The notes under the pieces are model-generated. The model saw nothing but the letters and a program-made list of their open reading frames with translations. It had not been told where the DNA came from and did no database searches. Source: Acidobacteriota bacterium (GTDB taxonomy: Bacteria; Acidobacteriota; CAIWXX01). Taken from it: a stretch of DNA of 64,000 bases. Both the position numbers and the translations under genes were made by a program. The stretch is from positions 1 through 64,000 of the forward strand of contig JBFMAF010000015.1 of the NCBI GenBank assembly GCA_040755995.1, given 5' to 3'. Shown piece after piece: positions 18,426-40,889 of this stretch; positions within the stretch are counted from its first letter, which is position 1; each line of letters starts with the position of its first letter.

Positions 18426-18620
18426 GAAACAACGGTCACTCTGCTGCCGCGGCGCAGTCGATGGAGAACGCGCTATTGCGTCAGCAATTCGTGCACCCGG
18501 CGTCGTAGAAGAGCGTACCGACCCTCTGCGCCCTGACAACCTGAGACCGCCCGCCCGTTCTCAAGTGCACATATGCGGCACAGGGCGTCTCCGCGTATGC
18601 CCGTGGTAGAATGTGCGGCC

Positions 18621-20486
18621 ATGGAAGACATCGGACGCATCTTGAAGGGGAGCGAGATCTTCGCAGGGCTGGACGAGCCGGTGCTGGAACTGCTCGTCGC
18701 AGCGGCTGAACGGCAGGAAGTGTTCGCGGGCGCCTATCTGTTCCAGCAGGGCGCCCCGCGCGAATCGCTGTTTCTGATCGTCGAGGGGCAGATCGAGGTG
18801 CTTCGCGACCGGGGGGATGGGCCGGAGCAGCTGGTGATCATGGGCCCGGGCGAATCTCTCGGCGAGAGTGCATTCGTCTACGCCGGGCTCCACACTGCCT
18901 CGGCACGAGCGCTGTCGCGCTCGGTCGTCCTCGCGCTGCACAGAGAGGCCGTCGGGCGGGCTCTTTCGCGGGACGGGTCCGCGGCAATGGAGTTCATGAG
19001 TCACGCGGCGCTCGAGGTGATTCGCCGGCTCCAGTACGCCAGCACCGGCCCCGGCGGGCTCGACAAGGCTTACGGGGCCGGGTCTACGCGGCTGGAGCAC
19101 GATCTGCTCGGGGAGCGCGAGGTGCCAAGCGACGCACTCTACGGCGTGCAGACGCTGCGGGGGGTCGAGAACTTCCCGATGTCCGGCGTCCGTCTGTCGC
19201 ACTACCCCGTGTTCATCAGATCGCTGGCGATGGTCAAACAGGCGGCTGCTCGTGCAAACGTGAAGCTCGGGCTCCTCGGTCCGGTCATCGCCAATGCGAT
19301 CGATCGCGCCTGCCAGGAGATCATCGACGGCCACTGGCATGGGCACTTCGTGGTGGACATGGTGCAGGGTGGAGCCGGCACATCGACCAACATGAACGCA
19401 AACGAAGTGATCGCCAACCGCGCGCTCGAGCTACTAGGGCACAAGCGCGGCGACTATGCCCACTGCCATCCGAACAACCATGTCAACCTCTCGCAATCCA
19501 CGAACGACGTCTATCCGACGGCGATTCGCCTGGCCACGGTCATTTCCTTGCGCGCTCTGGTGGCGGCCCTAGAAAAGCTCCGGAACGAGCTCGCGGCGAA
19601 GGGCGATGAATTCAGGGACATCCTGAAGATGGGCCGCACGCAGCTCCAGGACGCCGTCCCTATGACCCTCGGTCAAGAGTTCACTGCCTATGCGGTTACG
19701 ACCGCGGAGGATATCGCACGCCTTCGTGAGACCGCGCGGCTTTTCCTGGAGATCAACCTCGGAGGCACGGCAATCGGGACCGGCATCAATGCCGATCCGA
19801 GATATCCGCAGGTCGTGGTCGAGGAGCTTCGTCGCGTAAGCCATCTTGATGTCACGCTGGCGGAGAACCTCGTCGAGGCCACGCCCGACACCGGAGCCTT
19901 CGTGATGTTCTCCGGTGTGCTGAAACGAGTGGCCGTGAAACTTTCGAAGATGTGCAATGATCTGCGCCTGCTTTCATCCGGCCCCCGGTGCGGGCTCAGC
20001 GAGATCAACCTGCCGCCGAGGCAGCCGGGGTCGAGCATCATGCCGGGCAAGGTCAACCCGGTGATCCCGGAGGTCGTCAACCAGGTCGCCTTCTACGTCG
20101 TGGGCAATGACCTGACGATAACGATGGCAGCCGAAGCCGGCCAGCTGCAGTTGAATGTCATGGAGCCCATCATCGCCTTCTGTCTCTTTGAATCGCTTCA
20201 GATGCTGACCGCAGCGATCAAGACGCTCACTGACCGCTGCATCCGCGGCATCACGGCGAATCGAGATCGCACACGAGAGATGGTGGAGCGATCGATAGGT
20301 ATCGTGACGGCGGTGGTGCCGGCGATCGGCTACGAGCGCGCCAGCGAGGTGGCGAAGGAGGCGCTGGCGAGCGGCCGGCCCGTGCGGGACATCATCATCG
20401 AGAAGGCATACCTCACCGCCTCCGAGCTCGACTACCTGCTCTCCCCCGAGGCCATGACGCGCCCGCGCCCGCTGCAGAAACCTTAG
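18621..20486 (+). CDS. aspA: Aspartate ammonia-lyase with an N-terminal cyclic-nucleotide-binding domain
   Basis: cNMP domain (LFQQG, GESLGE, HTASARA); RLEHDLLG, GGAGTSTNMN, GRTQLQDA, GSSIMPGKVNP. Confidence 0.9.
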   Translation: MEDIGRILKGSEIFAGLDEPVLELLVAAAERQEVFAGAYLFQQGAPRESLFLIVEGQIEVLRDRGDGPEQLVIMGPGESLGESAFVYAGLHTASARALSRSVVLALHREAVGRALSRDGSAAMEFMSHAALEVIRRLQYASTGPGGLDKAYGAGSTRLEHDLLGEREVPSDALYGVQTLRGVENFPMSGVRLSHYPVFIRSLAMVKQAAARANVKLGLLGPVIANAIDRACQEIIDGHWHGHFVVDMVQGGAGTSTNMNANEVIANRALELLGHKRGDYAHCHPNNHVNLSQSTNDVYPTAIRLATVISLRALVAALEKLRNELAAKGDEFRDILKMGRTQLQDAVPMTLGQEFTAYAVTTAEDIARLRETARLFLEINLGGTAIGTGINADPRYPQVVVEELRRVSHLDVTLAENLVEATPDTGAFVMFSGVLKRVAVKLSKMCNDLRLLSSGPRCGLSEINLPPRQPGSSIMPGKVNPVIPEVVNQVAFYVVGNDLTITMAAEAGQLQLNVMEPIIAFCLFESLQMLTAAIKTLTDRCIRGITANRDRTREMVERSIGIVTAVVPAIGYERASEVAKEALASGRPVRDIIIEKAYLTASELDYLLSPEAMTRPRPLQKP

Positions 20487-27064: not shown

Positions 27065-28465
27065 CTACTTCCGGTCCGGCGGGAAGACGGTCCACGGGGT
27101 GGCGGGCAGATCCTTCAGGTAGCCGTCGAGATAGTCGTACTGAGTGTGCTTCTCGACGAATTGCTTCGCGTCAAACGAGATGTCGCACGAGTGGCCCCAC
27201 CTCGCCCAGATGCGCCACTGCTTCGCCATTTCAGAATCCACGACCTTGCCGTCATAGGCCCCCGAAGGAGAGTATGGCGGCCCGCTTCCCGGCACCATCC
27301 CGTCGTCCAGGTCTTCGTGTCCGCAAATCGTCCGGCTGGTTGGGATTTCCTTTTCCAGATAGATGTCGTAGTGGTCGGCCAGCATCCTCTTGGCGGCTTC
27401 GACGTCGATCTTGCCATAGTGCAGCTTCATGAGCTGCTTCCAGCGTTCGCGCCGCGCCACCGCGAAGCTCCTGGTGTCGTCGTACGGATGGTCCGTCTCG
27501 TCCACCCGGATCGCGATGTCATCGGTGACGTTCGAGCCCGTGAAGTAGCCGTCCCTTTTCTTCTCCACACTGTGATGCTTCAGGCCCAGTTCGAGCCTGG
27601 CGATCTCGCCGGTGCGGGTGTCGCCGATCAGCCACGAGTTGGCATACGCGCCGTTGTTCTTCTCGACCATGATCCGAATCCATTCGTCGATGCTTCCGGC
27701 GTACTGCATGGCCTTGCGGGATCGTTCGAAGACTGGTATCCCCGTCTCGTCGAAGCCGCTGAATCCGCTGATGGTCGTCTCAGTCCCCACCAACCCGGCG
27801 CCGGTGATGAAGAAGTCCGACGTGCTGTAGATCGACGGGCCCCAGGTCTGCATGAGCATCCGCTGGCCGTTCTGCGGGAGTATGTCCACGATGATGTTGC
27901 AGAACCTGCCATCGACGTAGGAGCTCCAGGTGTTGTGAGCCATCACGATCCTGCCCCCGGCCGTGGCGCTCCCCGTCGCGATAAAGGCGCTGCAGCCCAT
28001 CGCCGGCTTCGCCGGCTCCTTCTTCTGTTCCGGCCACCAGTACCCCATGAGGTCCGTCGAGCCGTTCAACAGCAGGATGTCCTCGTAGGTGGCCGGCTTG
28101 CCGGCCTTCGTCATGCCGGCCGCCATCCCCTTCATCTCCAGCACGTACTCGTCCGAGAGTGTCCCTTTGAACAGGCGCGTGGCGGCATCAAGGAAGAAGT
28201 CCCAGTCTTTGGCAGTGTCGAACTTAGTGACGTAGATCGTGGCCCGCTTGCACTCGTCGATCTCGGCTGCGGTCAGGTATCCGCGCTGGAACCCGATCTC
28301 GAACGGCTCGCCTTCGAGGTGCAGGAAGATCCAGCCGTTCTTCTCCACGCGGCTGGCTTTCTCGAGCCACCCCGCCTCCTGAGGCGTCAGGGTCTGCGCG
28401 GCCTGGGCGCCGAGGGCCGAAGCGAACAGGAATGCGCAAAAGCAGGTCAAGATTCTTCTACCCAT
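27065..28465 (-). CDS. Secreted Ntn-hydrolase (peptidase C45 / phospholipase B-like)
   Basis: Signal peptide, GCSAFIATG nucleophile, AHNTW, TETTI, NNGAYANSW. Confidence 0.8.
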   Translation of the reverse strand: MGRRILTCFCAFLFASALGAQAAQTLTPQEAGWLEKASRVEKNGWIFLHLEGEPFEIGFQRGYLTAAEIDECKRATIYVTKFDTAKDWDFFLDAATRLFKGTLSDEYVLEMKGMAAGMTKAGKPATYEDILLLNGSTDLMGYWWPEQKKEPAKPAMGCSAFIATGSATAGGRIVMAHNTWSSYVDGRFCNIIVDILPQNGQRMLMQTWGPSIYSTSDFFITGAGLVGTETTISGFSGFDETGIPVFERSRKAMQYAGSIDEWIRIMVEKNNGAYANSWLIGDTRTGEIARLELGLKHHSVEKKRDGYFTGSNVTDDIAIRVDETDHPYDDTRSFAVARRERWKQLMKLHYGKIDVEAAKRMLADHYDIYLEKEIPTSRTICGHEDLDDGMVPGSGPPYSPSGAYDGKVVDSEMAKQWRIWARWGHSCDISFDAKQFVEKHTQYDYLDGYLKDLPATPWTVFPPDRK

Positions 28466-28621
28466 GATCTCTCCTCTCGATTGGCTCCTAACGGCATCGT
28501 GACGCTTCTACACGGGCCCACGCACGCGGAGACGCATCGGATACAGCCATTGCCGGACGGGCCCGGGATTGTGCGGCGAAGGCGATTCTCCTCACAGCCA
28601 CAACCAGGCTCCAAAGCCATT

Positions 28622-28684
28622 GATCCAGCCGGTTGAGCTTGGCGAGGGTTATGACGGCCCCGAGTTGGAGACGACTGTCGGCAC
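28622..28684 (-). pseudogene. Frameshifted, truncated DUF3368-type PIN toxin N-terminus
   Basis: GTG abutting the antitoxin stop; VPTVVSNSGP, 1-nt shift, then ITLAKLNRLD. Confidence 0.65.
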
Positions 28685-28951
28685 TCAGACCAATTCCTCA
28701 TCGAGCATCTGTGAATCGGTGGGCGGTTGGAAGCCATGGGCGTAAGCCTGACAGGCCATGACATCTTCCGGCAGGCCCGCCGTCTCCACTGCGGCACCGA
28801 GCGACATCCCCCCGCGAGCGAACTCGGCCAGTGCCTGCTCGATCCTCTTCTGTCGAAGGCCGAGCCTGATGAGCTCGACAGGCGCCTCCGACTCCGCGTC
28901 CTCAAGCTCGTGAGGCAGCGGTTCGGGCAAACGCAAGATACACTCTACCAC
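28685..28951 (-). CDS. UPF0175-family putative antitoxin
   Basis: 88 aa, ALAEFARGGMSLGAAVETAGL HTH-like motif. Confidence 0.7.
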   Translation of the reverse strand: MVECILRLPEPLPHELEDAESEAPVELIRLGLRQKRIEQALAEFARGGMSLGAAVETAGLPEDVMACQAYAHGFQPPTDSQMLDEELV

Positions 28952-29077
28952 GTCGTCCCCACCTCGTTTCGAAGGTCATCTCAAATTGTGGCAGTACGCA
29001 ACCCGGAAATCCGCATCATCCAACCATCCGCCCGGCATGCTCTGGGTGGGACTGCCCTTCAACCTGTCGCGACCCGC

Positions 29078-30739
29078 TCACCGGCAGGTAAACGGCACCG
29101 GGTTGCTCGATAGACCACTGACGACGACGCGCACGGTCACCGTGTCTCCCGCCCTCAGCTTTCTGGGAATCCGGACCTTCAGGCGTGAAGCGGTCGCCTG
29201 GATGACTTCAGCTCGATACGCGCCGAAGTAGACCTTGTTGGCCTTCTTGGCAACGGAGAAGCCCTTTCCGCTGACTGTGGCCATGGTCCCGGGTTTGTGA
29301 TTGCGCGATCGAATGGAAGCGATGTGCGGGCCCGACTCGACCACTGTGATCGTGGCTGTCTGGCTGTATTCGAAGCCGCAGGCGTTTTCAACAGAAACCC
29401 AGTAGCTTGCATCCGACGTGAGCGGTCCGGTGGCGTAGGTATCGGTGATCGCATCGTCGATCAGATCGCTCGTGTCGCCGCTCGCGCCTCTGTACCAGAT
29501 GTACGACAGCGGAGCCGTCCCGGCGGCGGCGACGGTCAAGCTCGCACTTTCGCCGCTCGGAATCGTCTGGCTCCGAGGCTGCGTCTCGATCGTCGGCGGC
29601 GTGCACGGAGACGACGTCCCGTCCTGTGTCACCGTCAGCGTTCTGCCGGCAATCGCGATCTGGCCGGTGCGGGAATTCGTCCCCTCGTTCGGCAGTACGA
29701 GGTAGCCCGCAGTCCCTTCCCCGCTCCCGCTCGCGCCTCCGGTGATGCTGATCCAATTGACGTTGCTCGAAGCCGTCCAGTTGCAGCCGCTCTGCGTCGT
29801 GACGCTCACGTTTCCGGGACCCCCAGCCGCGCCGAAGTTTTCGGTCTCACGCGATATCGAGTAACTGCATCCGGACGGGGTGCCGTCCCATCCCGCGAGC
29901 CGCGCGAACAGCCACCAGGCCGCCCTGCCCTTCAAAACGCAGTTGAGCGTCTCCGAATGCGCACAACCACCGCATACGGCCGCCAATTGCGCGAGCGCAC
30001 TTCCCGGGTGCGCTCCGATCCACTCGGTCGCCCAGTTGCCGTCGCCCCACGGATTCCCATCCCCGTTTGTGTCGTATTCACAGCCGTCCGTTCCGAAGAG
30101 GGCCATGAAGTTGCGCGCACCGTCCGGGTCGAAACTCTCGATGTCTGCGAAATCGAACAGGATCTTGTTGTTGGTCTGGCAGTAGGCGCGAATCTGCTCG
30201 TTGCGCAGATTCAGATCCCCAGCTGCACCACTGCCCGCAAGGTGCCCCGTCATGTAAACGAACTTCACGCTCGGATAGTCGTTCTCCAGCTGGGTCATCA
30301 GGTTGAGGTAGAGAGTGATGTTGTCGGGGGTCGTATCGGCCTGCCCGCACCACGACCACATCACCACGTTGCGGTCGTTGTCGGCTCTGTTCAGGAGATC
30401 CCTGGTCCTCTGAGCCCATGTCGTTCGATCCGGGTTGCCAAGGTCGCCGCTCGGCGTGTAGTCATTCAGGAAGATCCCAGCGGAGAATCCGTTCGAGGAG
30501 GTGTAGTAGTAGAGCGAGCCCGGGCTGCCGCGAAACGCCTCCATGCCCGTGACGAGCTGGCTTCCGTGCGACGTGTGACCGTAGCTCACACGCAACACTG
30601 ACTTCGCCTGGTTGATCCACGTGTCCGGAATCTTCGATATGTCGGCGCAGGTGTGGTCGATGATGATCGCAGCGCCGGCGGTACCGACCGCCAGGCAGCA
30701 TGAAATGATCGTGGCTATGATGACTCTGCTGGCCAGCAT
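29078..30739 (-). CDS. Secreted multidomain protein: uncharacterised N-terminal domain, BACON, Ig-like and IPT/TIG domains
   Basis: Signal peptide; DHT..., HTSHGSQ, WSWCG; CNWTASSNVNWI (BACON); QPRSQT...YIWYRG (Ig); basic C-terminal TIG. Confidence 0.75.
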   Translation of the reverse strand: MLASRVIIATIISCCLAVGTAGAAIIIDHTCADISKIPDTWINQAKSVLRVSYGHTSHGSQLVTGMEAFRGSPGSLYYYTSSNGFSAGIFLNDYTPSGDLGNPDRTTWAQRTRDLLNRADNDRNVVMWSWCGQADTTPDNITLYLNLMTQLENDYPSVKFVYMTGHLAGSGAAGDLNLRNEQIRAYCQTNNKILFDFADIESFDPDGARNFMALFGTDGCEYDTNGDGNPWGDGNWATEWIGAHPGSALAQLAAVCGGCAHSETLNCVLKGRAAWWLFARLAGWDGTPSGCSYSISRETENFGAAGGPGNVSVTTQSGCNWTASSNVNWISITGGASGSGEGTAGYLVLPNEGTNSRTGQIAIAGRTLTVTQDGTSSPCTPPTIETQPRSQTIPSGESASLTVAAAGTAPLSYIWYRGASGDTSDLIDDAITDTYATGPLTSDASYWVSVENACGFEYSQTATITVVESGPHIASIRSRNHKPGTMATVSGKGFSVAKKANKVYFGAYRAEVIQATASRLKVRIPRKLRAGDTVTVRVVVSGLSSNPVPFTCR

Positions 30740-30851: not shown

Positions 30852-30867
30852 TGTGACGCGGGTCACA
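30852..30867. promoter_or_regulatory. CRP-type binding site TGTGA-N6-TCACA
   Basis: Exact TGTGAcgcgggTCACA about 110 bp upstream of the start at 30739. Confidence 0.6.
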
Positions 30868-31011: not shown

Positions 31012-34000
31012 TCACCTCGCCGCGCAGTGATTCGTGCGCTCGATGATCTCCTGCTTCATGCCGGGGGATAGATCGTTGAAATAGGCGCTGTAGCCGGAAA
31101 CCCGCACGAGAAGCCAGGGATAGGCGTTCGGCTCGGCCGCGGCCTTTTCCAGCATGGCGCGATCGAGCACGTTGATCTGGTATTGCATCCCGCCGTTCGC
31201 GAAGTAGCCTCTGGTGAGCCCCGTGAGCGCCGCGACTCCCTGATCCCCGGCGAGCAGGCTTCGTTCCAGCAGCAGGTTGACGTTGACGCCGTTGCGGGCC
31301 AGGCTGGTGAGGTCGAGCCTGGCGGCGGAATTGAGAGAGGCGGTCGGGCCGAGGCGGTCTCGCCCGCTGGCGGGTGAGAGCCCGTTGGCGAGCGGCCTGC
31401 CGGCGGCGCGACCGCTGGGCAGCGCGCCTGTAACCTCGCCGAAGGCACTGTGCGCGGTCACCGAGTAGAAACCCGCCAGATACTTGCCGCCACGCGTGTT
31501 TTCGTGCCTGCTCAGCGAGTCGGAGAAAACGCGCATCACCAGACCGGCGTATCGATCCGCCTCGGGGTCGTCGTTGCCGTACTTCGGTGCTCTCTGGAGC
31601 CATCCGCGGATCGTGTGGGCTCCGTCGAAATCGCTGCGCAGCGCACCGAGTAGATCGACCATGGTGCAGAGCTTGCGCCGGAAGACGACGTCCTCCATGG
31701 CGGCCAGGCTGTCGGCGACGTCGGCGATCCCGACCGCCTGCACGCCGCTGGCGTTGTATCTCGCTCCACCTGCCGTCGAATCGACGCCGCTTTCGAGGCA
31801 GCCGCCGATGAGCAGCGAAGTAAGCGGCGTCGGATGCAGCCGCGCATTCGCCCTCTCGATAGCTCGAAGGTCGGCGACGAGCAGGTCGACCAGGTAGTCC
31901 GTTCGCCTCCTGAACTCCTCGACTACTTCTCCGATGCTCCCGAAGTGCGCGGCCTCCGGCGGCGGCGATCCGTCCTTCTTCAGACCGAGCGCCCATTCGA
32001 GCGGCAGCGCGAGATTGACCAGCGCCGCGTCGGTCGAACCGAAGGTGAGCCCGCACGCAACCGGCTCGACGCAGCCGACCGGCGAGTAGTCGCGGGCGTC
32101 GGGAAGCCCGATGCCTCGCCCGACGAGCATCGGCACGACCACATCGTCGTTCATCAGCGAAGGCGCGCCCGAGCCACCCTGTAGCGCCCGCGCCACTCGG
32201 TCGAGGTACTCGGGCGGGCTGTCCGCATGCACCCTCGCGTGATAATTCGGCTGCCGCATCCGCAGTTCATCCATCGCGTCGAGGAACATCCAGGTCAGCT
32301 CGTTGGTCGAGTCGCGCCCCTCGCGGTCCACACCGCCTACGACCACCACCTGGCCGTTGAACATCCCGCCGTGAATCCGCGTGATTCGCCCGCTGAACAC
32401 CGGGACGATCTCGCTCATCTTCACCGTGAAGCACCCGATCAGCTCCCGCGCCGCCCGCTCGTCGATGCGCCCTGCAGCCTTGTCCGCCCGGTAGTACGGG
32501 TCGAGAATGAAATCGAGGCGGCCGGGGGAGATCGCGTTGTCGAGACTCTCCAGGTTCATCGCGATCTGCGCGAACAGAATCGACTGCAGCGCTTCGCGCA
32601 ACGTCTCAGCCTTCAGCCTGGGAACGCGCTCGCATGACCGGGCGATTTCTTCGAGCTCCGCGCGCCTCCCCGCTTCCGCGCATTCCGACGCCAGGCGGCG
32701 CGCCAACTCGGCGAACTGCCTCGCCATGTCCTCCAGCCCCTGGCACACGATATCGACGGCCTGGTAGAAATCCCGCGCGCTGTCGTGCTTCGTTTTCGCG
32801 AAGAGCGCCGACGCGTTGGCGCGGATCCCGCTCGTCCCGAGTCTCAAGAGCGTCGCGTAGTCGGGCACGAAGTGCGAGATCCCACCGGTCTCGTTGATCA
32901 CGTACCTCCGGCTCAGAATCTGGTCTCGTATGAAGCGGGTCGCGCGGGGCAGCGGGAAAGCCTTCAGCGCCAGAAAGCGAGTCAGCCAGAACGGCACGAT
33001 TCGCAGCAGAAACTCCCACTTCTCCGCGGCTTCCATTCGCAGAGGGTTGACGGGCCGCTTCTCGATCGAGAGGAGATCCTCCAGAAAGGTCACGCCGTGC
33101 AGCTCAGGGAAGAGGCCGCCACCGACGCGTTTGGAGCTGAAGTTGCCCACAAGCAGCTCATCGTCGTAGATCTTCGCGCTCCGATTCCGCAGGACGTGCC
33201 GCAGCGCCTCGGCCTTCTGGACGATCACCGGCTTGCGGCGGTTCTTGCGTTCCACGAAGTATCGTGTCACCAAACGGGCGCGTTCGAGGCAGACCGCAGG
33301 CGGGGTCGACTGCACTACGCGCCGGAGCCGCCAGACCCTCTCGGTGAAGGTGCTCGGTCTCGCGTCTCCAGTTCCGTCGGTCTGCGCAGACGCGATGCTG
33401 ACCGTCAGTCCTCTGGCGGTGAAGAACTCGGCCGCGCGCGCAAGCGCCTGGTCGGCTTCTGCGCGGCTGATCGCGAGCTTCGGCTGATTACTGCCGATGC
33501 GGTCGATCTTTGCGATGCCACCCGAGTGGTATGGCAGCAGGCTGATCGTGTTGCTACGCTGTTTCTCCAGGAACCCAGCGATACCGTCCAGGCTCATCTG
33601 CCCGTCATTCTGCCCAGGGACGACGGCCATCCGGAACTCCACCCGCGCTCCCGTTTCAATCAGCCTCTCTGCATTGCCGAAAATCCGGGAAATCTCAGTT
33701 CCCACGAGCTGGTGATGCTGCTCCTCATCGCCTGCCTTCAGATCGAAGAAGAACAGATCCGTGTACGGCCTCGCCAGCTCGAACGCATCCCACTTCACAG
33801 CGCCGCAAGTTTCGACCGTGGTGTTGATCCCTGCGCGCCGACAGCCTGCGAGAAGCTCAGCTGCCGCCTCGGGTTGCAGGAGAGGCTCGCCGCCGGAAAG
33901 CGTTACGCCGCCACCCGTGGCAGAGAAATACGAGCCGTCGAGTGCGATCTGATCGAGCAGCTGCGAGGTGCTCTCGTCCCGGCCGATCTTCCGCAGCGCT

Positions 34001-34302
34001 TCCTGGGGACAGATGTCGGCGCACTTGCCGCAGGCGTCGCACTTGCTGCGGTCGATGCGCCCGTTTCCTTCCGCGATGATCGCGCCCTGCTCGCAAACTC
34101 TTCTGCACTCCAGGCATCCGGCGCAGCGATCCGCATAGAAAGCCATCTCGAAGGAGCGGCGCTTCGACTCCGGGTTCTGGCACCAGCTACAACCAAGCGA
34201 ACAGCCTTTGAAGAACACGACCGTCCGGATACCGGGGCCGTCGTGGAGGCAGAACCGCTGCACATCGAAGATGCGCGCATGGCCGGCCCGATCCCTTTTC
34301 AT
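31012..34302 (-). CDS. Fusion of a glycyl-radical activating enzyme (radical SAM plus ferredoxin insert) and a PFL-family glycyl-radical enzyme
   Basis: HDGPGIRT, GCSLGCSWCQNPE, two CxxCxxCxxxC motifs, SGGEP; then GCVEP Cys loop and RVSGY Gly loop in one uninterrupted frame. Confidence 0.92.
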   Translation of the reverse strand: MKRDRAGHARIFDVQRFCLHDGPGIRTVVFFKGCSLGCSWCQNPESKRRSFEMAFYADRCAGCLECRRVCEQGAIIAEGNGRIDRSKCDACGKCADICPQEALRKIGRDESTSQLLDQIALDGSYFSATGGGVTLSGGEPLLQPEAAAELLAGCRRAGINTTVETCGAVKWDAFELARPYTDLFFFDLKAGDEEQHHQLVGTEISRIFGNAERLIETGARVEFRMAVVPGQNDGQMSLDGIAGFLEKQRSNTISLLPYHSGGIAKIDRIGSNQPKLAISRAEADQALARAAEFFTARGLTVSIASAQTDGTGDARPSTFTERVWRLRRVVQSTPPAVCLERARLVTRYFVERKNRRKPVIVQKAEALRHVLRNRSAKIYDDELLVGNFSSKRVGGGLFPELHGVTFLEDLLSIEKRPVNPLRMEAAEKWEFLLRIVPFWLTRFLALKAFPLPRATRFIRDQILSRRYVINETGGISHFVPDYATLLRLGTSGIRANASALFAKTKHDSARDFYQAVDIVCQGLEDMARQFAELARRLASECAEAGRRAELEEIARSCERVPRLKAETLREALQSILFAQIAMNLESLDNAISPGRLDFILDPYYRADKAAGRIDERAARELIGCFTVKMSEIVPVFSGRITRIHGGMFNGQVVVVGGVDREGRDSTNELTWMFLDAMDELRMRQPNYHARVHADSPPEYLDRVARALQGGSGAPSLMNDDVVVPMLVGRGIGLPDARDYSPVGCVEPVACGLTFGSTDAALVNLALPLEWALGLKKDGSPPPEAAHFGSIGEVVEEFRRRTDYLVDLLVADLRAIERANARLHPTPLTSLLIGGCLESGVDSTAGGARYNASGVQAVGIADVADSLAAMEDVVFRRKLCTMVDLLGALRSDFDGAHTIRGWLQRAPKYGNDDPEADRYAGLVMRVFSDSLSRHENTRGGKYLAGFYSVTAHSAFGEVTGALPSGRAAGRPLANGLSPASGRDRLGPTASLNSAARLDLTSLARNGVNVNLLLERSLLAGDQGVAALTGLTRGYFANGGMQYQINVLDRAMLEKAAAEPNAYPWLLVRVSGYSAYFNDLSPGMKQEIIERTNHCAAR

Positions 34303-34328
34303 CTTTCCCTCGGCGGTTCGTCCGGGCT

Positions 34329-36179
34329 TCAGTTCAGCCGGACGATGCGCCCTACGCCGCCGAGCGGGTACTGAGCTCCGGACACGCGGCCGCTCAGGTT
34401 CACGGTCAGGTACGTGTCGAGCGACTGTTGGTTTGCCTCGCCCAGATTAACGTACGGCAGCGTACGGAACGGGTACTGATCTCCTCCCTGCACCATGTAG
34501 GTGGTAGCAGCCACCACGACATCGGGCGCGCCGGCAACCACCTGGCCGCCGCTCACGAGCACCCGCCCGTCGTCCAATGTGGCCTGCTGGATTCGCGTCC
34601 CCGCCACTACGACGTTGTTGTCGGCGTCGAGCACCTGCGCCGTTCCGGCGGCATCGTAAACCATCTTGAAGCCGGCGATCTGAGCGAATCTTCCTGCCAA
34701 CAATTCGACCTGCGAGACCGAGTTTTCGAGAATCTCCTTGAATTGAGCCGCCGGCACGCGGTCGACCACACAGACGAAGCCGGGAAACGGGAGGATGTTC
34801 CAGGTGTCGAGCTCGGTGATGTCGCCGGCCGGAATCACCGTGGCGTTTCGCATTGCCCCTCCGTTCACCAGGGCTACGTCGGGATTCGGAGCGCCGTAAC
34901 GCGGTGCCAGCCTTCGCGCTGCCTGCAGCAGCGAGTCCACGACGAGGTCTCCTTCGTTCGTTTCGCGCGCCCGGATGCTCTCGCGTAGACCGTCGAGGGC
35001 GACGTCGCTCACCGCCACTACGGTCGCGTCCAACTGGGCGAGGCCGTCGTTGACCGGGTCCACAACCTCGCGGCGCACCCGCTGATCCGGCTTCACCGAG
35101 TCCGGGTTGCCAGGCCCTGCGACGCGCACGGGACCGCTGCGCTGGTCGTACCTCACGATCTCGCCATTCGCATCGAACCCGGCGATCAGCCGGCCGACAT
35201 ACCAGTAGTACTGGCGCGCCGTCACGATGAGGACCGGCCTGCCAGCCGCGTCCTTGGCCTGGACCGGATAGCCGCCGAAGACATGCGCCTCGTCCCCTGG
35301 GATAAGCAAATCGCCCGGGTTCGCGAGCAGCTCGTGGCCGCCGCCGGCCACGATGATGTCGATGCCGTCGAGTGTCGGGGCAAGGGCAATCTCATTGAGG
35401 ATGTTCTGGAGGTGGCTGATCAAGACGATCTTGTTGACACCTCGGGATCGCATCAGGTTGATCTGGCGCTGGACGGCGCCGGTAACATCGACGTTCACAC
35501 GGACGCGCCGGGGGCTGGATATGTACGGAAGCTGCGGTGTGGTGGCCCCGATTATACCGATCTCCTCGCCTCCCTTGGTCACGACGACGCTTCTGCAGAT
35601 CGTCCCACGCTTCACCCACAGCTCCAGCTCCCGCTCCCCGCTGAAGTCCAGATTCGCGCCCAGCCAGGGCGGATTGCTGCGCAGGTGCGCGAAGCTGCGG
35701 ATGTAGTCGGCGAGGACGTCGGGGCCGAGGTCGAACTCGTGGTTGCCGAAGGCCACGGCATCGTACTCGACATAGCTCTGGCCGACAGCATCGTAGTAGG
35801 GCACGCCGTGTGTCAGACTCTGGTTGAACTGCGCGCTGGCGAGGAAGTTGTCACCCGAAGAGACCTTGATGAGACCGTGGCGCCCGCGCACGGCGCTCTC
35901 CGCTTCCTTCTCGATCCGTCTCACGCAGCCGACGAAGCGATCGATCCCGCCAAACTGCTCAAGCCCCTCCCCTGCGTTGACCAGATGCGATTCCATGTCG
36001 TTGCTGTGGATGACGGTGAGCCAGTAGGCCACGGGCGCGTGGCCGGCGGCGACGTACACGTCCTTCCCGTTCGCCACAACCGGGGCGAGGCAGGCTTGCG
36101 GTGAAAGAAACAGCAGGAACGTGCCGAGCATGCCGAGACGTGCTGCGCCCGAGAAAGATGCGTCGTTGGTCTGTCTCAT
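34329..36179 (-). CDS. Secreted bifunctional metallophosphatase/5'-nucleotidase
   Basis: HSNDMES, GDNF, GNHEFD, ISHL, GGGH, NGGAMR, GGDQY. Confidence 0.88.
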   Translation of the reverse strand: MRQTNDASFSGAARLGMLGTFLLFLSPQACLAPVVANGKDVYVAAGHAPVAYWLTVIHSNDMESHLVNAGEGLEQFGGIDRFVGCVRRIEKEAESAVRGRHGLIKVSSGDNFLASAQFNQSLTHGVPYYDAVGQSYVEYDAVAFGNHEFDLGPDVLADYIRSFAHLRSNPPWLGANLDFSGERELELWVKRGTICRSVVVTKGGEEIGIIGATTPQLPYISSPRRVRVNVDVTGAVQRQINLMRSRGVNKIVLISHLQNILNEIALAPTLDGIDIIVAGGGHELLANPGDLLIPGDEAHVFGGYPVQAKDAAGRPVLIVTARQYYWYVGRLIAGFDANGEIVRYDQRSGPVRVAGPGNPDSVKPDQRVRREVVDPVNDGLAQLDATVVAVSDVALDGLRESIRARETNEGDLVVDSLLQAARRLAPRYGAPNPDVALVNGGAMRNATVIPAGDITELDTWNILPFPGFVCVVDRVPAAQFKEILENSVSQVELLAGRFAQIAGFKMVYDAAGTAQVLDADNNVVVAGTRIQQATLDDGRVLVSGGQVVAGAPDVVVAATTYMVQGGDQYPFRTLPYVNLGEANQQSLDTYLTVNLSGRVSGAQYPLGGVGRIVRLN

Positions 36180-36276
36180 TGTCTTCTCCGAGGTGGGTGT
36201 TCGTCCAGCGTGCCGGGCTTGGGTTTCATGTCTGTAATCCCCTCGACAATATGCGCCCAATGAGTCTCCGTTTCAA

Positions 36277-36438: not shown

Positions 36439-38484
36439 CTACTTCTTCGCCTCGCCGCCTTGTCCGAGCTGCGCGAGCCGGCTCTTGAGCTCCGGCTGGT
36501 CCGGCACCAGCTGCAGCGAGGTTTGCCAGGTCTTGATGGCAGCGGGAATCTGGCCAGATGCGTAGTAGCAGTCGCCGATGGCATTCAGCACACGGTGGTC
36601 TGTCCCGTGCGATGACATGTAGCGGTTGTAGTTTTCGATGGCGGGCTCGAAGCGTCGCATTGCCTGCTGAGCCGTGGCCAGGTAGAGATAGGCCTCGGGC
36701 TGCTTCAGCTCGGGGCCTGCGACAATCGGTTCGAGCGTCTGCACCACCTTTTCGTACTCCTTCTTCTGCAGCCTCAGCCTCGCCAGGCCGATCTTGAACT
36801 CGACGACATCCGGGTAGTTCTTCTCGCCGGCCTCCAACGCAGCGAACGCGGCATCGTCGTCCTCACGGCGCGCGTACTGGTCTGCGACGATCAATTCATA
36901 GATGTAGCTCTTGTCGGCCGGGAGCACCTTGGAGTAGACCCAGGGGGTTGGGACGGCGGCGACGGGTGAAATCGAAAAGGGCACTTCCTTGCTCGACAGC
37001 ACCGCGCCCCCGGTTCCGGTGAGGTCGAAGCGCACGGCGTATTCCCCCGCTGGAAGATCGCCCGTGGGCAGCATCAGGTTGTAGTGCGTCTGGAGCGAAA
37101 TGGACTGCAGAGTACGCTCGGTCTTGGACACCTCCTGTGCCTCCTTTCGTATCGTCGCAACGACGCTGACGCCGTCGGTCGGGCCTGCGACCTGGAAGGT
37201 GGCACTGAGCGCCGTGCCGCGCAGGAAGATGGCCTGCGGCCGCAACTCGGGCTGTGTGGAACCGTACTGGAATGGACGAAGGATCGCATCCTGCGGTGTC
37301 GTCTTGAGCAGACCTGAGAGCAAGGGATCGAGCAGCTGTGTCGAGGCAGCGGCGGCGGGGATTTCAATAGAGGTCTCGAAATCGGAGAACTCCTTGCTCA
37401 CGATGTTCTTGACCAGCAGCGTGAGCTTGTACTTGCCCGGTATGGCGGGAAAAAGGTCTGTCAAGCAGAGTGAGCCGCCCTTCAACAGTTTGAGAGTCGC
37501 CTCGTCGAACTCCATGGGCTGCGTCTTGTTGAACTCGTAGACGGTGCGGCCCCGGTCGTCCTCGATCTTTCCATAGATCTTGTAGCTGGTGAAGTACTTC
37601 TTCTCGTACTGGTCGACCGACAGCGTCTTCGGCTCGATGGCGTAGTTGACGAAGTAGGTGCCTGATGGAGCCCTGGTGACGCGCACGATGTACCGGCACT
37701 CGACATAGCTCAGCGAGTAGTCAGCCTCGATCTGGCCGCGGTACCTGGACACCTTCTCTGCGTATCTCGGATCGATCAGCTTCTGCGGATACGCGGCGAT
37801 GTTGGCGAGAAGAACCTCGGATGAGAGGGCTGCGCCCATGCGGTCGGAGGTCTGCCCGACCAGAAGGTTGAGGGAGTACTCGGCCAGCACCGGCTCGTAC
37901 TCCTTCAGCTTCTCGTAAGCTTCCTCGGTGTTCGCCGGTGCGCCGTCGTAATGGCGCATGAAAGCAACAGGGCCGTCGCTTCCGGGATGGTAGAGCTTGT
38001 ACTCACCGTAACCGTGTCGCTTGAAGAAGATGACATTGAAGCCCGAAGGAAATCCGAACTCCGTCTTGCCGCGATAGAACCACACCTCGGTCGGAACGAT
38101 CGTCAGCGTCTCCTCGAAGCGCTCAACCTGATCCGGCTTTCCGAGGATGATGTAGACCCGGCCGCGGTCCGTTCGCCATCCACCGGCAGGGCTGTCAATG
38201 AAGTAGGTGTTGGCGTAGTTGATCCTCCGGTAGTGTTCATCACGGAACTCGTTGGTCGGCGTCCCCGGTGTGGGATCGCGCTGGGCCCAGAAGGCCTCGA
38301 TGAAAAAATCCCTGTCCTTGTCGCTCGTGAACGACAGGAACACCTGCTTCTCCAATGGCGTGATGATGTAGACGACCTCCTCCTGAAACCACTTCCTATA
38401 CTTCTCCGGCAGGTCCTTCTCCGCGACGGCCAGCAGGTTCGCCGCGTTCGCGAGAATACAAAGAGACAGCATCAGATGTTTCAT
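36439..38484 (-). CDS. GWxTD-domain protein with C-terminal TPRs
   Basis: Signal peptide from MKHLML; FWAQRDPTP, GWRTDRGRVYI; TPR helices. Confidence 0.88.
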   Translation of the reverse strand: MKHLMLSLCILANAANLLAVAEKDLPEKYRKWFQEEVVYIITPLEKQVFLSFTSDKDRDFFIEAFWAQRDPTPGTPTNEFRDEHYRRINYANTYFIDSPAGGWRTDRGRVYIILGKPDQVERFEETLTIVPTEVWFYRGKTEFGFPSGFNVIFFKRHGYGEYKLYHPGSDGPVAFMRHYDGAPANTEEAYEKLKEYEPVLAEYSLNLLVGQTSDRMGAALSSEVLLANIAAYPQKLIDPRYAEKVSRYRGQIEADYSLSYVECRYIVRVTRAPSGTYFVNYAIEPKTLSVDQYEKKYFTSYKIYGKIEDDRGRTVYEFNKTQPMEFDEATLKLLKGGSLCLTDLFPAIPGKYKLTLLVKNIVSKEFSDFETSIEIPAAAASTQLLDPLLSGLLKTTPQDAILRPFQYGSTQPELRPQAIFLRGTALSATFQVAGPTDGVSVVATIRKEAQEVSKTERTLQSISLQTHYNLMLPTGDLPAGEYAVRFDLTGTGGAVLSSKEVPFSISPVAAVPTPWVYSKVLPADKSYIYELIVADQYARREDDDAAFAALEAGEKNYPDVVEFKIGLARLRLQKKEYEKVVQTLEPIVAGPELKQPEAYLYLATAQQAMRRFEPAIENYNRYMSSHGTDHRVLNAIGDCYYASGQIPAAIKTWQTSLQLVPDQPELKSRLAQLGQGGEAKK

Positions 38485-38599
38485 AGCATCTGCGATACTA
38501 GCGGCTGGCCTGACCGGTGTCAACGCCTGCACGCCTGCGCCTGCACCCGTTGTGAACGCCGTGCAGGTGCGCAAGGCCTGCGCCCCGCTCGTTGGCGAT

Positions 38600-40786
38600 C
38601 TAGGGCTGCCCCCGCCTGCCTCCGAGCGCCTGCGCAGCTTCGCTCGCGACGCGCGCGGCGCGCTCCGTCTCGCCGATCGACCGCAGGAACCGAATGACGG
38701 CGGTGAATGCCTCCGGGGTCTTGGCTCTGTGATCGTCGAAAAGAGCGACGGCCTCCTGGCGCCGGCCGGCGTCGAGGAGCAGCATGGCGAGCGTGATGCG
38801 GGCGCCGACGTTGGACGGCAGCGCCGCGAGCTCCCTGCGATACTCCTCCATGGCCTCACTCTTCTGTCCCTTCTGTTCGAGCACTCTGCCGATGTGGTAG
38901 TGGAGCGACGGGAGAAACACGCGCGGGTCGCCCTTGGCCATCTGTCTTTCCGCCCGCCTGAAGCAAACAAGCGCATCGTCGAGCCGGCCCTTCTGGTAAG
39001 CCACTATTCCCTTGACGTAGTGTGGCATGGGAAGCGCCGGGTCGAGCGCAATCGCCCGGTCCATCGCGAGGGCGGCCTGGGCGGCGTTGCCCTTCGAGAA
39101 CTGCACCTGACCCTGGAGCTCCCAGCCCTTCGCGAGGGTTGGATCCTTCTCCAGGGCCGTCTCAATATAGTGCAGGGCTTCGTCCGGCTTGTTCAGTTTC
39201 CACAGCAGCCGCGCCACGCGCACGAGGGCATAAGGGTTCCCGCTATCCAGCTCTGCCGTCCGCCTCAGCACATTCGCCGCGTCTTCTGTGCGGCCGAGCG
39301 CACTCAGGGACCTCCCGAGCTGCTCCATCACATCCACCATGTTGGGATTCTCCGCGAGAATACTCTCGAAGGCGGACGCCGCGCCCGCCTCGTCGCCTTT
39401 GCGATGCAGCTGCAGTCCCAGGCGGAACTTCTCGATCAGGTGGATCTTGTCCTTCGGATCCGGCTTCTGTGCGTTTTCGGGCAGCTGGGTGGAGACCACG
39501 CCGATGTAGCCCAGAGCCTGCAACTTCTCGAGCTCTTCTTCGGATATCTCGGCCGGCGCCTCGACCGAGCGACTTGCAAGAGTCTGGTCGATCTCGTATC
39601 GGTACTGGCCGGCAGTTGTCGCGAGCTTTGCGGCCAGATTCTCCTTCTCGCCCGGATCCTTCGTGAGGTCGTAGAGCTCCTCGCGCGGAGACTTGATGAA
39701 TTTGTATTGCGCGTCGGTGAGCGAGTACAGCTCGCTCCAGCCGAAGTGATACATCGGGTAGAGCGATTCCGAGTAGATGACCCGCCTGGGCCGGCTCGCG
39801 CCGATGCCGATCAACGAACTGCCCTCGAGGGCGAGCGGCGATTTGAGCGCGTAGAAGTCCAGGATCGTCGGCACGATGTCGATCAACTGCACGGGCGTCT
39901 CCACTCGCTCCCCGGCCAGCGCCCCGCCCGGGTACTTGACCAGCAGTGGCACATGGATCATCGCGTTGTAGATGAAGACTCCGTGCTCCCCCTCGCCGTG
40001 ATCTCCGAGCCCCTCGCCGTGATCCGACGTGAGTATTATCAGCGCCTGGTCGTACAGGTCGGTGTCCCGCAGGTACTGGACGAAGTCGCCGACAAGCTCG
40101 TCCACGTAGGCCACCTCGCCGTCATACGGCCGTCCGGCGTACTCCGTGCGGTACGGCTCGGGCGGCGTATACGGACTGTGAGGTTCATAGAAGTGAAGAA
40201 GCATGAAGAAGCGTTTTGCGGGCTGATCACTGCGTACCTGGTCGAGCCATGTCTCGGCGGCTGCGAGCGTGTCTTTCCCGTGACGCTGCAGCTCCCCCAT
40301 CGACACCTCGGCCTTCTCGCGTGTCATCTCGGAGTCGTAGTGCTCGAAGCCCAGTCCGATCCGAGTCTGCCCGCGTAGAACGTACGACGAAACGAAGCCC
40401 CCGGTCTGAAAGCCTTCACGTTTGAGAACGTCCGCCAGCGTCTCCTGGTTCTCGCGCACAAAGAAGCCGACGTTGTCCCGCACGCCCGTCTCGAACGGCA
40501 GCATTCCTGTCAGAATCGTGACGTGCGATGGCAGCGTCTGGGGGCAGTGTGAGTAACAGTGTTCGAAGAGAGTCGACTCCTTCGCGAGCTGGTCGATGGC
40601 CGGCGTCCGGACCCGATCATAGCCGTACGCCGGCAGATGATCCGCTCGCAGCGTGTCGATCGAGATCAGGATCACCGGCGCAGACGCGCGGGCCTTGCTG
40701 AAGTCGGGCGGCCGCCCGCACGACGCGGCACCGATCAAGAGCGTAGAGGCCACGAGCAGCTCACAACATCTCTCCAACCCACGCAT
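38600..40786 (-). CDS. Sulfatase-like hydrolase/transferase with TPRs (probable lipoprotein)
   Basis: ISIDTLRADH, TLPSH, EPHSPY, SDHGE, AASC lipobox; C-terminal TPRs. Confidence 0.88.
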   Translation of the reverse strand: MRGLERCCELLVASTLLIGAASCGRPPDFSKARASAPVILISIDTLRADHLPAYGYDRVRTPAIDQLAKESTLFEHCYSHCPQTLPSHVTILTGMLPFETGVRDNVGFFVRENQETLADVLKREGFQTGGFVSSYVLRGQTRIGLGFEHYDSEMTREKAEVSMGELQRHGKDTLAAAETWLDQVRSDQPAKRFFMLLHFYEPHSPYTPPEPYRTEYAGRPYDGEVAYVDELVGDFVQYLRDTDLYDQALIILTSDHGEGLGDHGEGEHGVFIYNAMIHVPLLVKYPGGALAGERVETPVQLIDIVPTILDFYALKSPLALEGSSLIGIGASRPRRVIYSESLYPMYHFGWSELYSLTDAQYKFIKSPREELYDLTKDPGEKENLAAKLATTAGQYRYEIDQTLASRSVEAPAEISEEELEKLQALGYIGVVSTQLPENAQKPDPKDKIHLIEKFRLGLQLHRKGDEAGAASAFESILAENPNMVDVMEQLGRSLSALGRTEDAANVLRRTAELDSGNPYALVRVARLLWKLNKPDEALHYIETALEKDPTLAKGWELQGQVQFSKGNAAQAALAMDRAIALDPALPMPHYVKGIVAYQKGRLDDALVCFRRAERQMAKGDPRVFLPSLHYHIGRVLEQKGQKSEAMEEYRRELAALPSNVGARITLAMLLLDAGRRQEAVALFDDHRAKTPEAFTAVIRFLRSIGETERAARVASEAAQALGGRRGQP

Positions 40787-40889
40787 GCGGCTCATTCTAT
40801 ACAGCGTGTCACGACTCTACAACCGATTCAACGAATCGACGAATCGGCGCAGTGTGTGTCGCGCAGTATGGTTCCAGAGGTGAGATTTC

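Follow-up and report, generated by a model that had tools for sequence, protein, structure and literature searches.

A radical SAM activase and a glycyl radical enzyme on one polypeptide from an Acidobacteriota bacterium, with a putative role in polyol C–O bond cleavage

We analysed a window of 64,000 nucleotides (positions 1 to 64,000 of contig JBFMAF010000015.1, Acidobacteriota bacterium), in which one gene encodes a protein of 1096 residues, P0001. This protein is a complete radical S-adenosylmethionine (SAM) activase, a polar linker and a complete glycyl radical enzyme (GRE) on one chain. The activase likely activates the GRE to which it is joined, and the GRE half likely cleaves a C–O bond in a neutral polyol larger than glycerol; taken together, these two propositions have in our view about an even chance of being right. 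The architecture is conserved and apparently undescribed; both of its parts are well known, and the GRE clade concerned has no assigned substrate.

The fused gene and its homologues

The main parts of the gene are located as follows in the window:
31012..34302, minus strand: fused activase-GRE gene (P0001), one stop-free open reading frame (ORF) of 1096 residues, from translation, Pfam and curated models
33394..34302, minus strand: activase domain, residues 1–303, radical SAM core with a ferredoxin insert for two [4Fe-4S] clusters
34180..34203, minus strand: CX3CX2C motif (C34, C38, C41), invariant in 53 of 53 aligned proteins
34009..34125, minus strand: two CX2CX2CX3C ferredoxin-type motifs, residues 60–70 and 88–98, both matched in 46 of the 53 aligned proteins
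33349..33393, minus strand: polar linker, about residues 304–318, with no stop and no start codon, predicted to be disordered
31015..33348, minus strand: GRE domain, residues 319–1096, PFL2/diol-dehydratase-like fold

An initial annotation had described a continuous chain, without a stop or an ATG at the junction, carrying a complete activase and a complete GRE. This description proved accurate down to the motif coordinates, and the Pfam domains agree with it (Radical_SAM at residues 28–235, Fer4 also within this N-terminal part, PFL-like at 321–955, Gly_radical at 972–1076). The CX3CX2C motif lies at residues 34–41, GGEP at 137, TERV at 320 (position 33345), GCVEP at 743 (32062-32076) and RVSGY at 1067 (31090-31104), with Gly1070 at position 31095. 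The frame is free of stops and, between residues 280 and 329, contains no in-frame ATG, GTG or TTG, the first being the GTG of V330. Therefore, a full GRE cannot be initiated separately at the junction. A start at V330 would remove the TERV helix of the GRE half.

A protein search gave 2420 matches among 8000 candidates scored, and the counts below are from the 120 listed. Both domains were found in 68 of these 120 proteins, so that close homologues are not all split genes. Full-length fusions amounted to 56 including P0001, and all 56 retain CX3CX2C, GCxE and R[VI]SGY. Identity to P0001 is 55–67% in the core fused group and 40–43% for two outliers. Fused members are named from Deltaproteobacteria, Bradymonadales, Acidobacteria, Myxococcota, Desulfarculales and the anaerobic protist Anaeramoeba flamelloides. 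Databases carry them under the names of one or both halves, and fused frames were also read in the DNA of three loci (L001, L002, L003).

These homologues bear on the possibility that the gene is an artefact or dead, whether through an assembly error or chance read-through, a cut of the chain in the cell, or inactivity of one half. Decay does occur in the fused family, since an Anaeramoeba paralogue (P0129) has lost the register of its Cys loop and the Arg of its Gly loop. Against this possibility stand the 55 other full-length fusions, which stem from four data sources, the intact motifs of P0001 and the codon use of its two halves, 0.71 and 0.75, which lies within the genome range (5–95%: 0.61–0.77). 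We consider an artefact or a dead gene very improbable, and the fusion in P0001 almost certainly real.

The activase half clears the cut-off of TIGR02494, a model of GRE activases (300.6 vs 174.35 bits). Its structural match to the activating enzyme of pyruvate formate-lyase (PFL-AE, 3cb8) covers 241 residues with Z 31.2 and a root mean square deviation (rmsd) of 1.9. D21 and N43 lie on either side of the CX3CX2C motif and do not vary in the 53 aligned proteins; they align to PFL-AE Asp16 and Asn38, two contacts of the Gly loop (PMC9326890). By its TIGR02494 score, its CX3CX2C motif, its Gly-loop contact residues and its ferredoxin insert, the activase half is, as judged on sequence, a GRE activating enzyme.

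Fold, active site and candidate reaction of the GRE half

The GRE half scores above the Pfam cut-offs (PF02901, 539.8 bits; PF01228, 85.5 bits), and P0001 has the features of the PFL-like superfamily, namely a PFL-like barrel, a C-terminal Gly radical domain, a Cys loop and a Gly loop. When the predicted model was compared with known structures using VIA-align, the closest folds tied at Z 50–51: propanediol dehydratase (5i2g, 9rcp), PFL2 (2f3o) and glycerol dehydratase (GD; 1r8w). Decarboxylases gave Z 41–43, succinate synthases 38–40 and PFL 35. None of the GRE family models shown was passed; the best was TIGR01774 (PFL2-3), with 635–637 bits and thus slightly short of its cut-off of 678.2, which this genome's own HypD does not reach either.

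The initial annotation had set the enzyme apart from PFL, CutC, HypD, glycerol dehydratase and IslA. We came to the same view, as family cut-offs and active-site residues both disagree with the last four. PFL was rejected on GCVEP, with a single Cys instead of adjacent Cys-Cys, and on TIGR01255 (135.9 vs 994.2 bits). For HypD, NF043068 gave 437–439 vs 1100 bits, and the same genome's own HypD scores 1244.7. For CutC, TIGR04394 gave 408.8 vs 1050 bits, and His477 stands at the CutC Asp216 (common beta-1) site. The C–S lyases IslA, IseG and HpsG and the DHPS dehydratase HpfG were rejected on NF048011 and NF048009 (439.9 and 426.7 vs 1000 bits). A sulfonate anchor of two Arg and a Gln was likewise rejected: G473 and H477 occupy the IslA Arg189 and Gln193 sites, and Y946 would occupy the Arg678 site. 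For the PflD/YbiW isomerases, NF007437 gave 457.5 vs 1109 bits, and F636 is found where the E. coli enzymes have an Arg, presumably for phosphate binding. Identity with glycerol or 1,2-propanediol dehydratase was rejected on the replacement of the pocket-closing His281 and Phe333 and the aromatic Tyr339 by N589, H644 and G650. The models of indoleacetate and hydroxyphenylacetate decarboxylase reached 272 of 1100 and 227 of 1150 bits, respectively. A small-subunit ORF, as for BSS and MASS, was not found on the same strand within 26 bases upstream and 272 bases downstream of the ORF. In the P0001 sequence itself, residues 745–763 contain no Arg; in BSS/MASS, the fumarate-binding Arg508 lies after the Cys loop. 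The CutC Asp216 and IslA Gln193 sites, and IslA Arg189 used for mapping, are those of PMC8473560.

The active-site segments are located as follows:
32872..32886, minus strand: GGISH, H477 equivalent to GD His164, invariant in 125 of 125 proteins
32533..32550, minus strand: ESLDNA, N589 at the GD His281 / HypD Asp278 site and D588 at the HypD Trp277 site, by alignment
32350..32373, minus strand: HGGMFNGQ, cap helix and next strand, H644 at the GD Phe333 / HypD Ser334 site and G650 at the GD Tyr339 / HypD Phe340 site, by alignment
32023..32076, minus strand: Cys loop GCVEP (C744, E746) and STDAA (D758 equivalent to GD Asp447), by alignment
31450..31467, minus strand: YSVTAH, Y946 equivalent to GD Tyr640 and V948 as in propanediol dehydratase, by alignment
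31090..31104, minus strand: Gly loop RVSGY, G1070 the expected radical site, from Pfam and motif

Conservation was followed in 125 clade proteins (65 fused, 50 non-fused sisters and 10 further split). H477, C744, E746 and D758 are invariant and Y946 is present in 123; C744 and E746 align to GD Cys433 and Glu435. The pocket differs from that of GD by the changes Tyr339 to G650 in 124 proteins, Phe333 to H644 in 118 and His281 to N589 in 122, and the Trp-His preceding GD Asp447 becomes S756-T757 in P0001, a pair that is likewise nearly constant across the 125 proteins. We take GD Asp447, Tyr640, His281 and Tyr339 to have catalytic or pocket roles. In the clade alignment, G473 takes the place of the IslA/HypD Arg and F636 that of the PflD/YbiW Arg. 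R642, found in 61 of the 65 fused proteins, could still bind an anion. Overall, the GRE half reads as having kept the His/Cys/Glu/Asp/Tyr set of diol dehydratases, with a wider, more polar pocket devoid of a phosphate or sulfonate anchor. From these residues, it is reasonably probable that the GRE half is a C–O eliminase or a ring-opening isomerase of a neutral polyol larger than glycerol.

For GD, Glu435 has been proposed as the base and His164 as the acid that protonates the leaving hydroxyl (PMC13450708, section 5.6). In P0001, the Gly radical would generate a thiyl radical on Cys744, which would abstract a hydrogen from the carbinol carbon. Glu746 would deprotonate the hydroxyl of this carbon while His477 would protonate the neighbouring leaving oxygen. 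The product would be an aldehyde or a ketone, formed by dehydration or, where the oxygen is in a ring, by ring opening. The initial annotation was right that the substrate loops differ in their residues from those of CutC, HypD and glycerol dehydratase, but this is not specific to the fusion, the residues being the same in the 50 non-fused sisters. Since split relatives, with an activase gene followed by a GRE gene, share the active-site residues, the fusion did not bring the chemistry.

Several points weigh against this assignment. The CxE motif, first read as fitting the eliminase class, is indeed present as C744-V-E746 in 125 of 125 proteins, but it is also found in the isomerases HplG, YbiW and PflD and in the decarboxylase HPAD (PMC13450708, sections 5.4 and 5.7), so that it is not exclusive to the eliminase/isomerase class. 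GRE active sites are plastic (PMC8473560, PMC7077986). PFL2, the nearest solved relative by sequence, is itself without an agreed function. Residue equivalences were counted by hand along sequence alignments, with glycerol dehydratase as the reference, and not from model coordinates. Finally, no downstream enzyme or transporter is conserved, and no aldehyde/alcohol dehydrogenase is common across the scanned loci. The domain scans of the neighbourhoods covered 40, 60 and 31 of 347 called ORFs, in overlapping sets; the neighbours of clade genes vary between loci, and they yield no clue to the substrate.

A different reaction was also considered, in which the GRE half would decarboxylate its substrate, or would activate a hydrocarbon or an acyl chain feeding beta-oxidation, a role suggested earlier for A. 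fulgidus PFL2. That enzyme gave the best sequence match (E 1e-151), and a methylalkylsuccinate synthase function has been put forward for it (PMC13450708, section 7). Decarboxylases likewise use CxE, and at L001 and L002 the genes immediately before the fusion encode acyl-CoA dehydrogenase, enoyl-CoA hydratase and biotin carboxylase. However, L001 and L002 are one lineage. Acyl-CoA genes were found at 10 of 26 clade loci vs 2 of 32 unrelated metagenome GRE loci, in a comparison whose query proteins were drawn from clade loci and which counted kin as independent. With control stretches from the same genomes, the link was rejected (10/21 clade loci vs 12/35, p = 0.40), also when restricted to acyl-CoA dehydrogenase, enoyl-CoA hydratase and carboxyltransferase (10/21 vs 10/35, p = 0.16). 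Moreover, the gene of the window has no acyl-CoA genes nearby, no small-subunit gene fits beside its ORF, structural scores to BSS/MASS and HPAD/AAD are lower, the decarboxylase models remain far below their cut-offs, and the polar pocket suits a hydroxylated substrate. We therefore hold such a reaction to be improbable, and prefer C–O bond cleavage in a polyol. The full run that the fusion ends (L001:1-10664, L002:1-11252) reads: two carboxyltransferases, biotin carboxylase, (beta-keto acid cleavage enzyme), enoyl-CoA hydratase, acyl-CoA dehydrogenase.

Tethered activation and origin of the fusion

In the 53-sequence alignment, both halves are conserved and the linker is the sole freely varying part. 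Between anchors it measures 15–53 residues, with a median of 19, and roughly 135 in P0026. AlphaFold2 was run on this alignment, and P0001 (19-residue linker) and P0030 (53-residue linker) were folded. The P0001 model had a mean predicted local distance difference test (pLDDT) score of 90.6 and a predicted template modelling (pTM) score of 0.90, pLDDT being below 50 solely at the termini and at linker residues 306–313. With P0030, the pTM was again 0.90, and 42 linker residues had a pLDDT below 50. According to our calculation, two well-folded, unrelatedly oriented domains of these sizes would give a pTM of about 0.71–0.73, and 0.90 would require an inter-domain error near 5–7 Å. As this value is retained with a long disordered linker, the predicted pose is not dependent on a short tether. 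The models thus suggest that the activase docks in a defined pose on the GRE. Two facts temper this. The P0001 and P0030 folds share one alignment and are not independent. In addition, the GRE half of the P0001 model aligns over 759–773 residues to closed GRE structures; the model therefore shows a closed state, at best a resting pose and not the activation step.

In the proposed scheme, the closed GRE barrel would offer the activase a defined surface to rest on, with the linker serving only to keep the activase close. The reduced [4Fe-4S] cluster at C34/C38/C41 would cleave SAM, D21 and N43 would hold the Gly loop in the manner of PFL-AE, and the 5′-deoxyadenosyl radical would take a hydrogen from Gly1070 upon outward flip of the C-terminal radical domain. 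Activation within one chain would be slightly favoured over activation of the dimer partner.

The initial annotation called the system self-contained, which is overstated, because SAM, an outside reductant and Fe–S assembly are still required. It also proposed a tethered, self-(re)activating enzyme. The tethered activase and GRE are real, but oxygen damage, which cleaves the GRE backbone at Gly (PMC13450708, section 3), cannot be undone by re-activation. Re-activation of P0001 would be possible only after reductive loss of the radical, and a chain cut by O2 would lose its last 26 residues and keep an activase able to serve other chains. A further point counts against the proposed scheme: in PFL, a fixed 1:1 ratio sped activation and also radical loss (PMC13450708, section 2.4), so that the fusion may trade persistence for readiness and tethering may have a cost.

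Alternatively, both halves may work with the activase acting like a free one, on the partner subunit or on other molecules, the join being a convenience for co-expression or gene transfer. Linkers ranging from 15–53 residues to roughly 135 in P0026 are consistent with this, as are split sisters with the same active site, related GREs without an adjacent activase in genomes having 3–8 GRE and 1–2 activase matches, and the patchiness of the clade (2 of 401 sampled genomes of the window's phylum). Moreover, GREs dimerise through N-terminal helices, beside the linker entry (PMC13450708, section 4.1). On the other side, the high pTM of the whole chain, which persists when the linker is long and disordered, speaks for a specific interface, and no linker is shorter than 15 residues among the 53 proteins. 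We find this alternative rather unlikely, and favour an activase docked on the GRE of its own chain. A broader proposal is a family of self-activating GREs in which the chain installs its own radical via a built-in, defined docking site and performs a new polyol C–O cleavage. The design would have at least two origins and would have been passed between anaerobic bacteria and also to a eukaryote. This proposal is tentative; we give it somewhat less than an even chance.

In split relatives, the activase gene immediately precedes the GRE gene in the same orientation at L004, L005, L007, L017, L132, L135, L139, L140 and L141; at a tenth locus, L131, the same order is found with a 255-base gap. The activases of split loci group with the fused activases (support 0.936). 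The fusion would derive from such an activase-then-GRE gene pair and would have been kept as a one-gene, dedicated, portable unit, without creating the chemistry. Related GREs without an adjacent activase are found at L133, L134, L136, L137, L142-L147 and L149. Five genomes, G677, G705, G716, G619 and G445 (L133, L137, L142, L143, L149), have 3–8 GRE matches and 1–2 activase matches, so that their lone clade GREs share an activase or are inactive. The GRE copies of L136 and L148 are broken into pieces.

In a first tree of 153 GRE domains, the 65 fused proteins and two short ones formed one clade (0.993); one of the short proteins, which clusters with a 1088-residue protein, is probably a truncated call. 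In a larger tree, the core fused group (100/100), the split sisters (100/100) and the divergent fusions of Anaeramoeba, a Waddliaceae bacterium and Desulfomonilia share one node (99/98), with internal order unresolved. A single fusion origin, to which the first tree pointed, may or may not hold: the best larger tree needs two changes, and the approximately unbiased test did not reject one clade (p = 0.30, with P0146 counted as fused from a partial N-terminus and P0264 left out). Clade matches came from 2 of the 401 genomes that were sampled from the window's phylum and from 26 of 401 in the phylum of G042, a pattern compatible with transfer or with patchy loss. A further phylum search, around G041, gave no genomes beyond those already found. 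A metagenome scan keyed on activase patterns gave 1 fused locus of 80, most being split pairs of other GRE families.

Some fused proteins depart from the common pattern. Anaeramoeba flamelloides has a second fused paralogue (P0129 / P0283; KAJ3428281.1, KAJ6231265.1), present in two assemblies, with CX3CX2C kept, a shifted Cys loop, a Gly loop without Arg and no DGPG; it is possibly a dead or repurposed copy. In the P0133 cluster (Desulfomonilia, 1113 residues, 5 full-length of 7 members), the activase has no ferredoxin insert, while the GRE carries a long insert and another pocket signature; these are features of a second subtype, perhaps with another substrate. In the P0264 cluster (1052–1054 residues, 3 members), the activase is joined to a GRE that is only distantly related (27% identity) and has no Glu in its Cys loop; this is probably a separate, independent fusion with different chemistry. 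P0191 (1008 residues, a single sequence) has the reversed order, GRE then activase, and no Gly-radical domain match; it may be a frameshift artefact. P0026 / P0128 (Bradymonadales) combine a linker of about 135 residues with a low-complexity insert inside the GRE.

Genomic context and comparison with known systems

The surroundings of the gene in the window comprise:
34303..34311, minus strand: putative Shine-Dalgarno-like purine-rich stretch, directly 5′ of the ATG, from the letters only
30852..30867, minus strand: putative terminator-like hairpin, 145 bases 3′ of the stop, a consensus match
34329..36260, minus strand: upstream 5′-nucleotidase-like gene, ending 26 bases before the P0001 start
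36439..40795, minus strand: sulfatase with TPR repeats, then a GWxTD-domain TPR protein
27065..30739, minus strand: BACON-, Ig- and TIG-domain protein that looks secreted, its N-terminal domain unassigned, followed by a phospholipase-B-like protein
18573..20486, plus strand: ORF that reads, by eye, as a cyclic-nucleotide-binding domain fused to aspartate ammonia-lyase

Terminator-like hairpins numbered 7 in the region vs 3.2 expected in shuffles. The 5′-nucleotidase-family gene is probably co-transcribed with that of P0001. The 5′-nucleotidase-like and Ig-domain neighbours were not seen beside the other family loci compared and matched only this genome's own loci. Besides P0001, the genome encodes four GREs, all of them paired with separate activases of their own. 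One is HypD by cut-off (G000:C6:38649-41872, activase and HypD, 1244.7 bits vs 1100). Two paralogous GRE-activase loci (G000:C3:89095-92989 and G000:C56:16247-20198), with about 81% DNA identity, match no assigned family, and a third GRE outside assigned families has a long N-terminal extension (G000:C44:54936-58401).

A PFL-activase fusion in a eukaryote may reportedly have been mentioned by Stairs et al. in 2011; none appeared in passages from three algal papers. Our literature search, which did not cover the supplementary tables where GRE networks might list such proteins, found no description of a natural activase-GRE fusion. A word search of the main text of a 2026 GRE review (PMC13450708) gave no 'fused', 'fusion' or 'single polypeptide', and the available parts of PMC3660698, PMC4034769, PMC8003979, 10.64898/2026.07.20.739533, PMC12756279, PMC8473560, PMC9326890, PMC9850924 and 10.1101/2025.02.23.639758 contain no such fusion. 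Fusions of adjacent genes are common, and the chemistry of P0001 is common to its split relatives. Structurally, GRE activation has been viewed only in PFL-AE together with a peptide of 7 residues (PMC13450708, sections 2 and 7), and the full activase:GRE complex has been called 'not yet accessible' (PMC9326890). The same review lists as open how the radical domain flips back and half-site loading, and names insoluble activases as a main bottleneck (PMC13450708). A natural chain with a fixed 1:1 ratio, and matching split relatives as controls, makes cis or trans activation, the number of radicals per chain and cryo-EM of the docked state testable. If the self-activating reading were true, a full activase:GRE complex could be seen in a structure for the first time, and a single protein would offer a way past the activase bottleneck. 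The analysis also marks a conserved GRE clade of at least 125 proteins with a substrate yet to be assigned.

The GRE half resembles glycerol dehydratase (C. butyricum, 1R8W) and the GRE 1,2-propanediol dehydratase (5I2G, 9RCP) with an rmsd of 1.8–2.1 over about 770 residues and 34% identity. Equivalents of His164, Cys433, Glu435, Asp447 and Tyr640 are kept, with Val at the propanediol dehydratase position. In contrast, Asn stands in for His281, His for Phe333 and Gly for Tyr339, and Ser-Thr takes the place of the Trp-His in front of Asp447; the activases of these enzymes are separate, whereas P0001 has its activase in the chain, and neither microcompartment nor propanediol/glycerol genes lie near its gene. 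Archaeoglobus fulgidus PFL2 (2F3O), the best sequence match (511 bits, E 1e-151; 37% identity in the structural alignment), has E-x-x-GISH, IVP-x-F, RxRQPN and S-x-DAA in common with P0001. It differs by a separate activase, by EQA instead of DNA on the first barrel strand, by FSGQATNQ instead of HGGMFNGQ and by YPMTTN instead of YSVTAH, and lies outside the P0001 clade by identity.

PflD and YbiW, C–O lyases of anhydro-sugar-phosphates (8ID0, 8ID7), have CxE and the His477 equivalent as in P0001, and PflD shares Gly at 650 and His at 951. However, their Arg at 636 is Phe in P0001, and the P0001 window offers no phosphotransferase system or aldolase context. With HypD, whose numbering was carried over by motif through this genome's own HypD, P0001 shares the equivalents of His160, Cys434, Glu436 and Thr645, whereas the Asp278 and Asp339 sites are Asn (N589, N649) and Arg156, Lys326, Ser334 and Phe340 are absent. 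Each D-to-N change at Asp278 and Asp339 abolished HypD activity (PMC7077986). The PFL activating enzyme 3CB8 and the TIGR02494 activases have the radical SAM fold, CX3CX2C, DGPG and the Asn38 Gly-loop contact in common with P0001; compared with PFL-AE, the P0001 activase is covalently attached to its target and has the two-[4Fe-4S] insert that PFL-AE is without. Overall, in characterised GRE/activase systems the activase is a separate polypeptide, whereas in P0001 both parts are encoded by one ORF.

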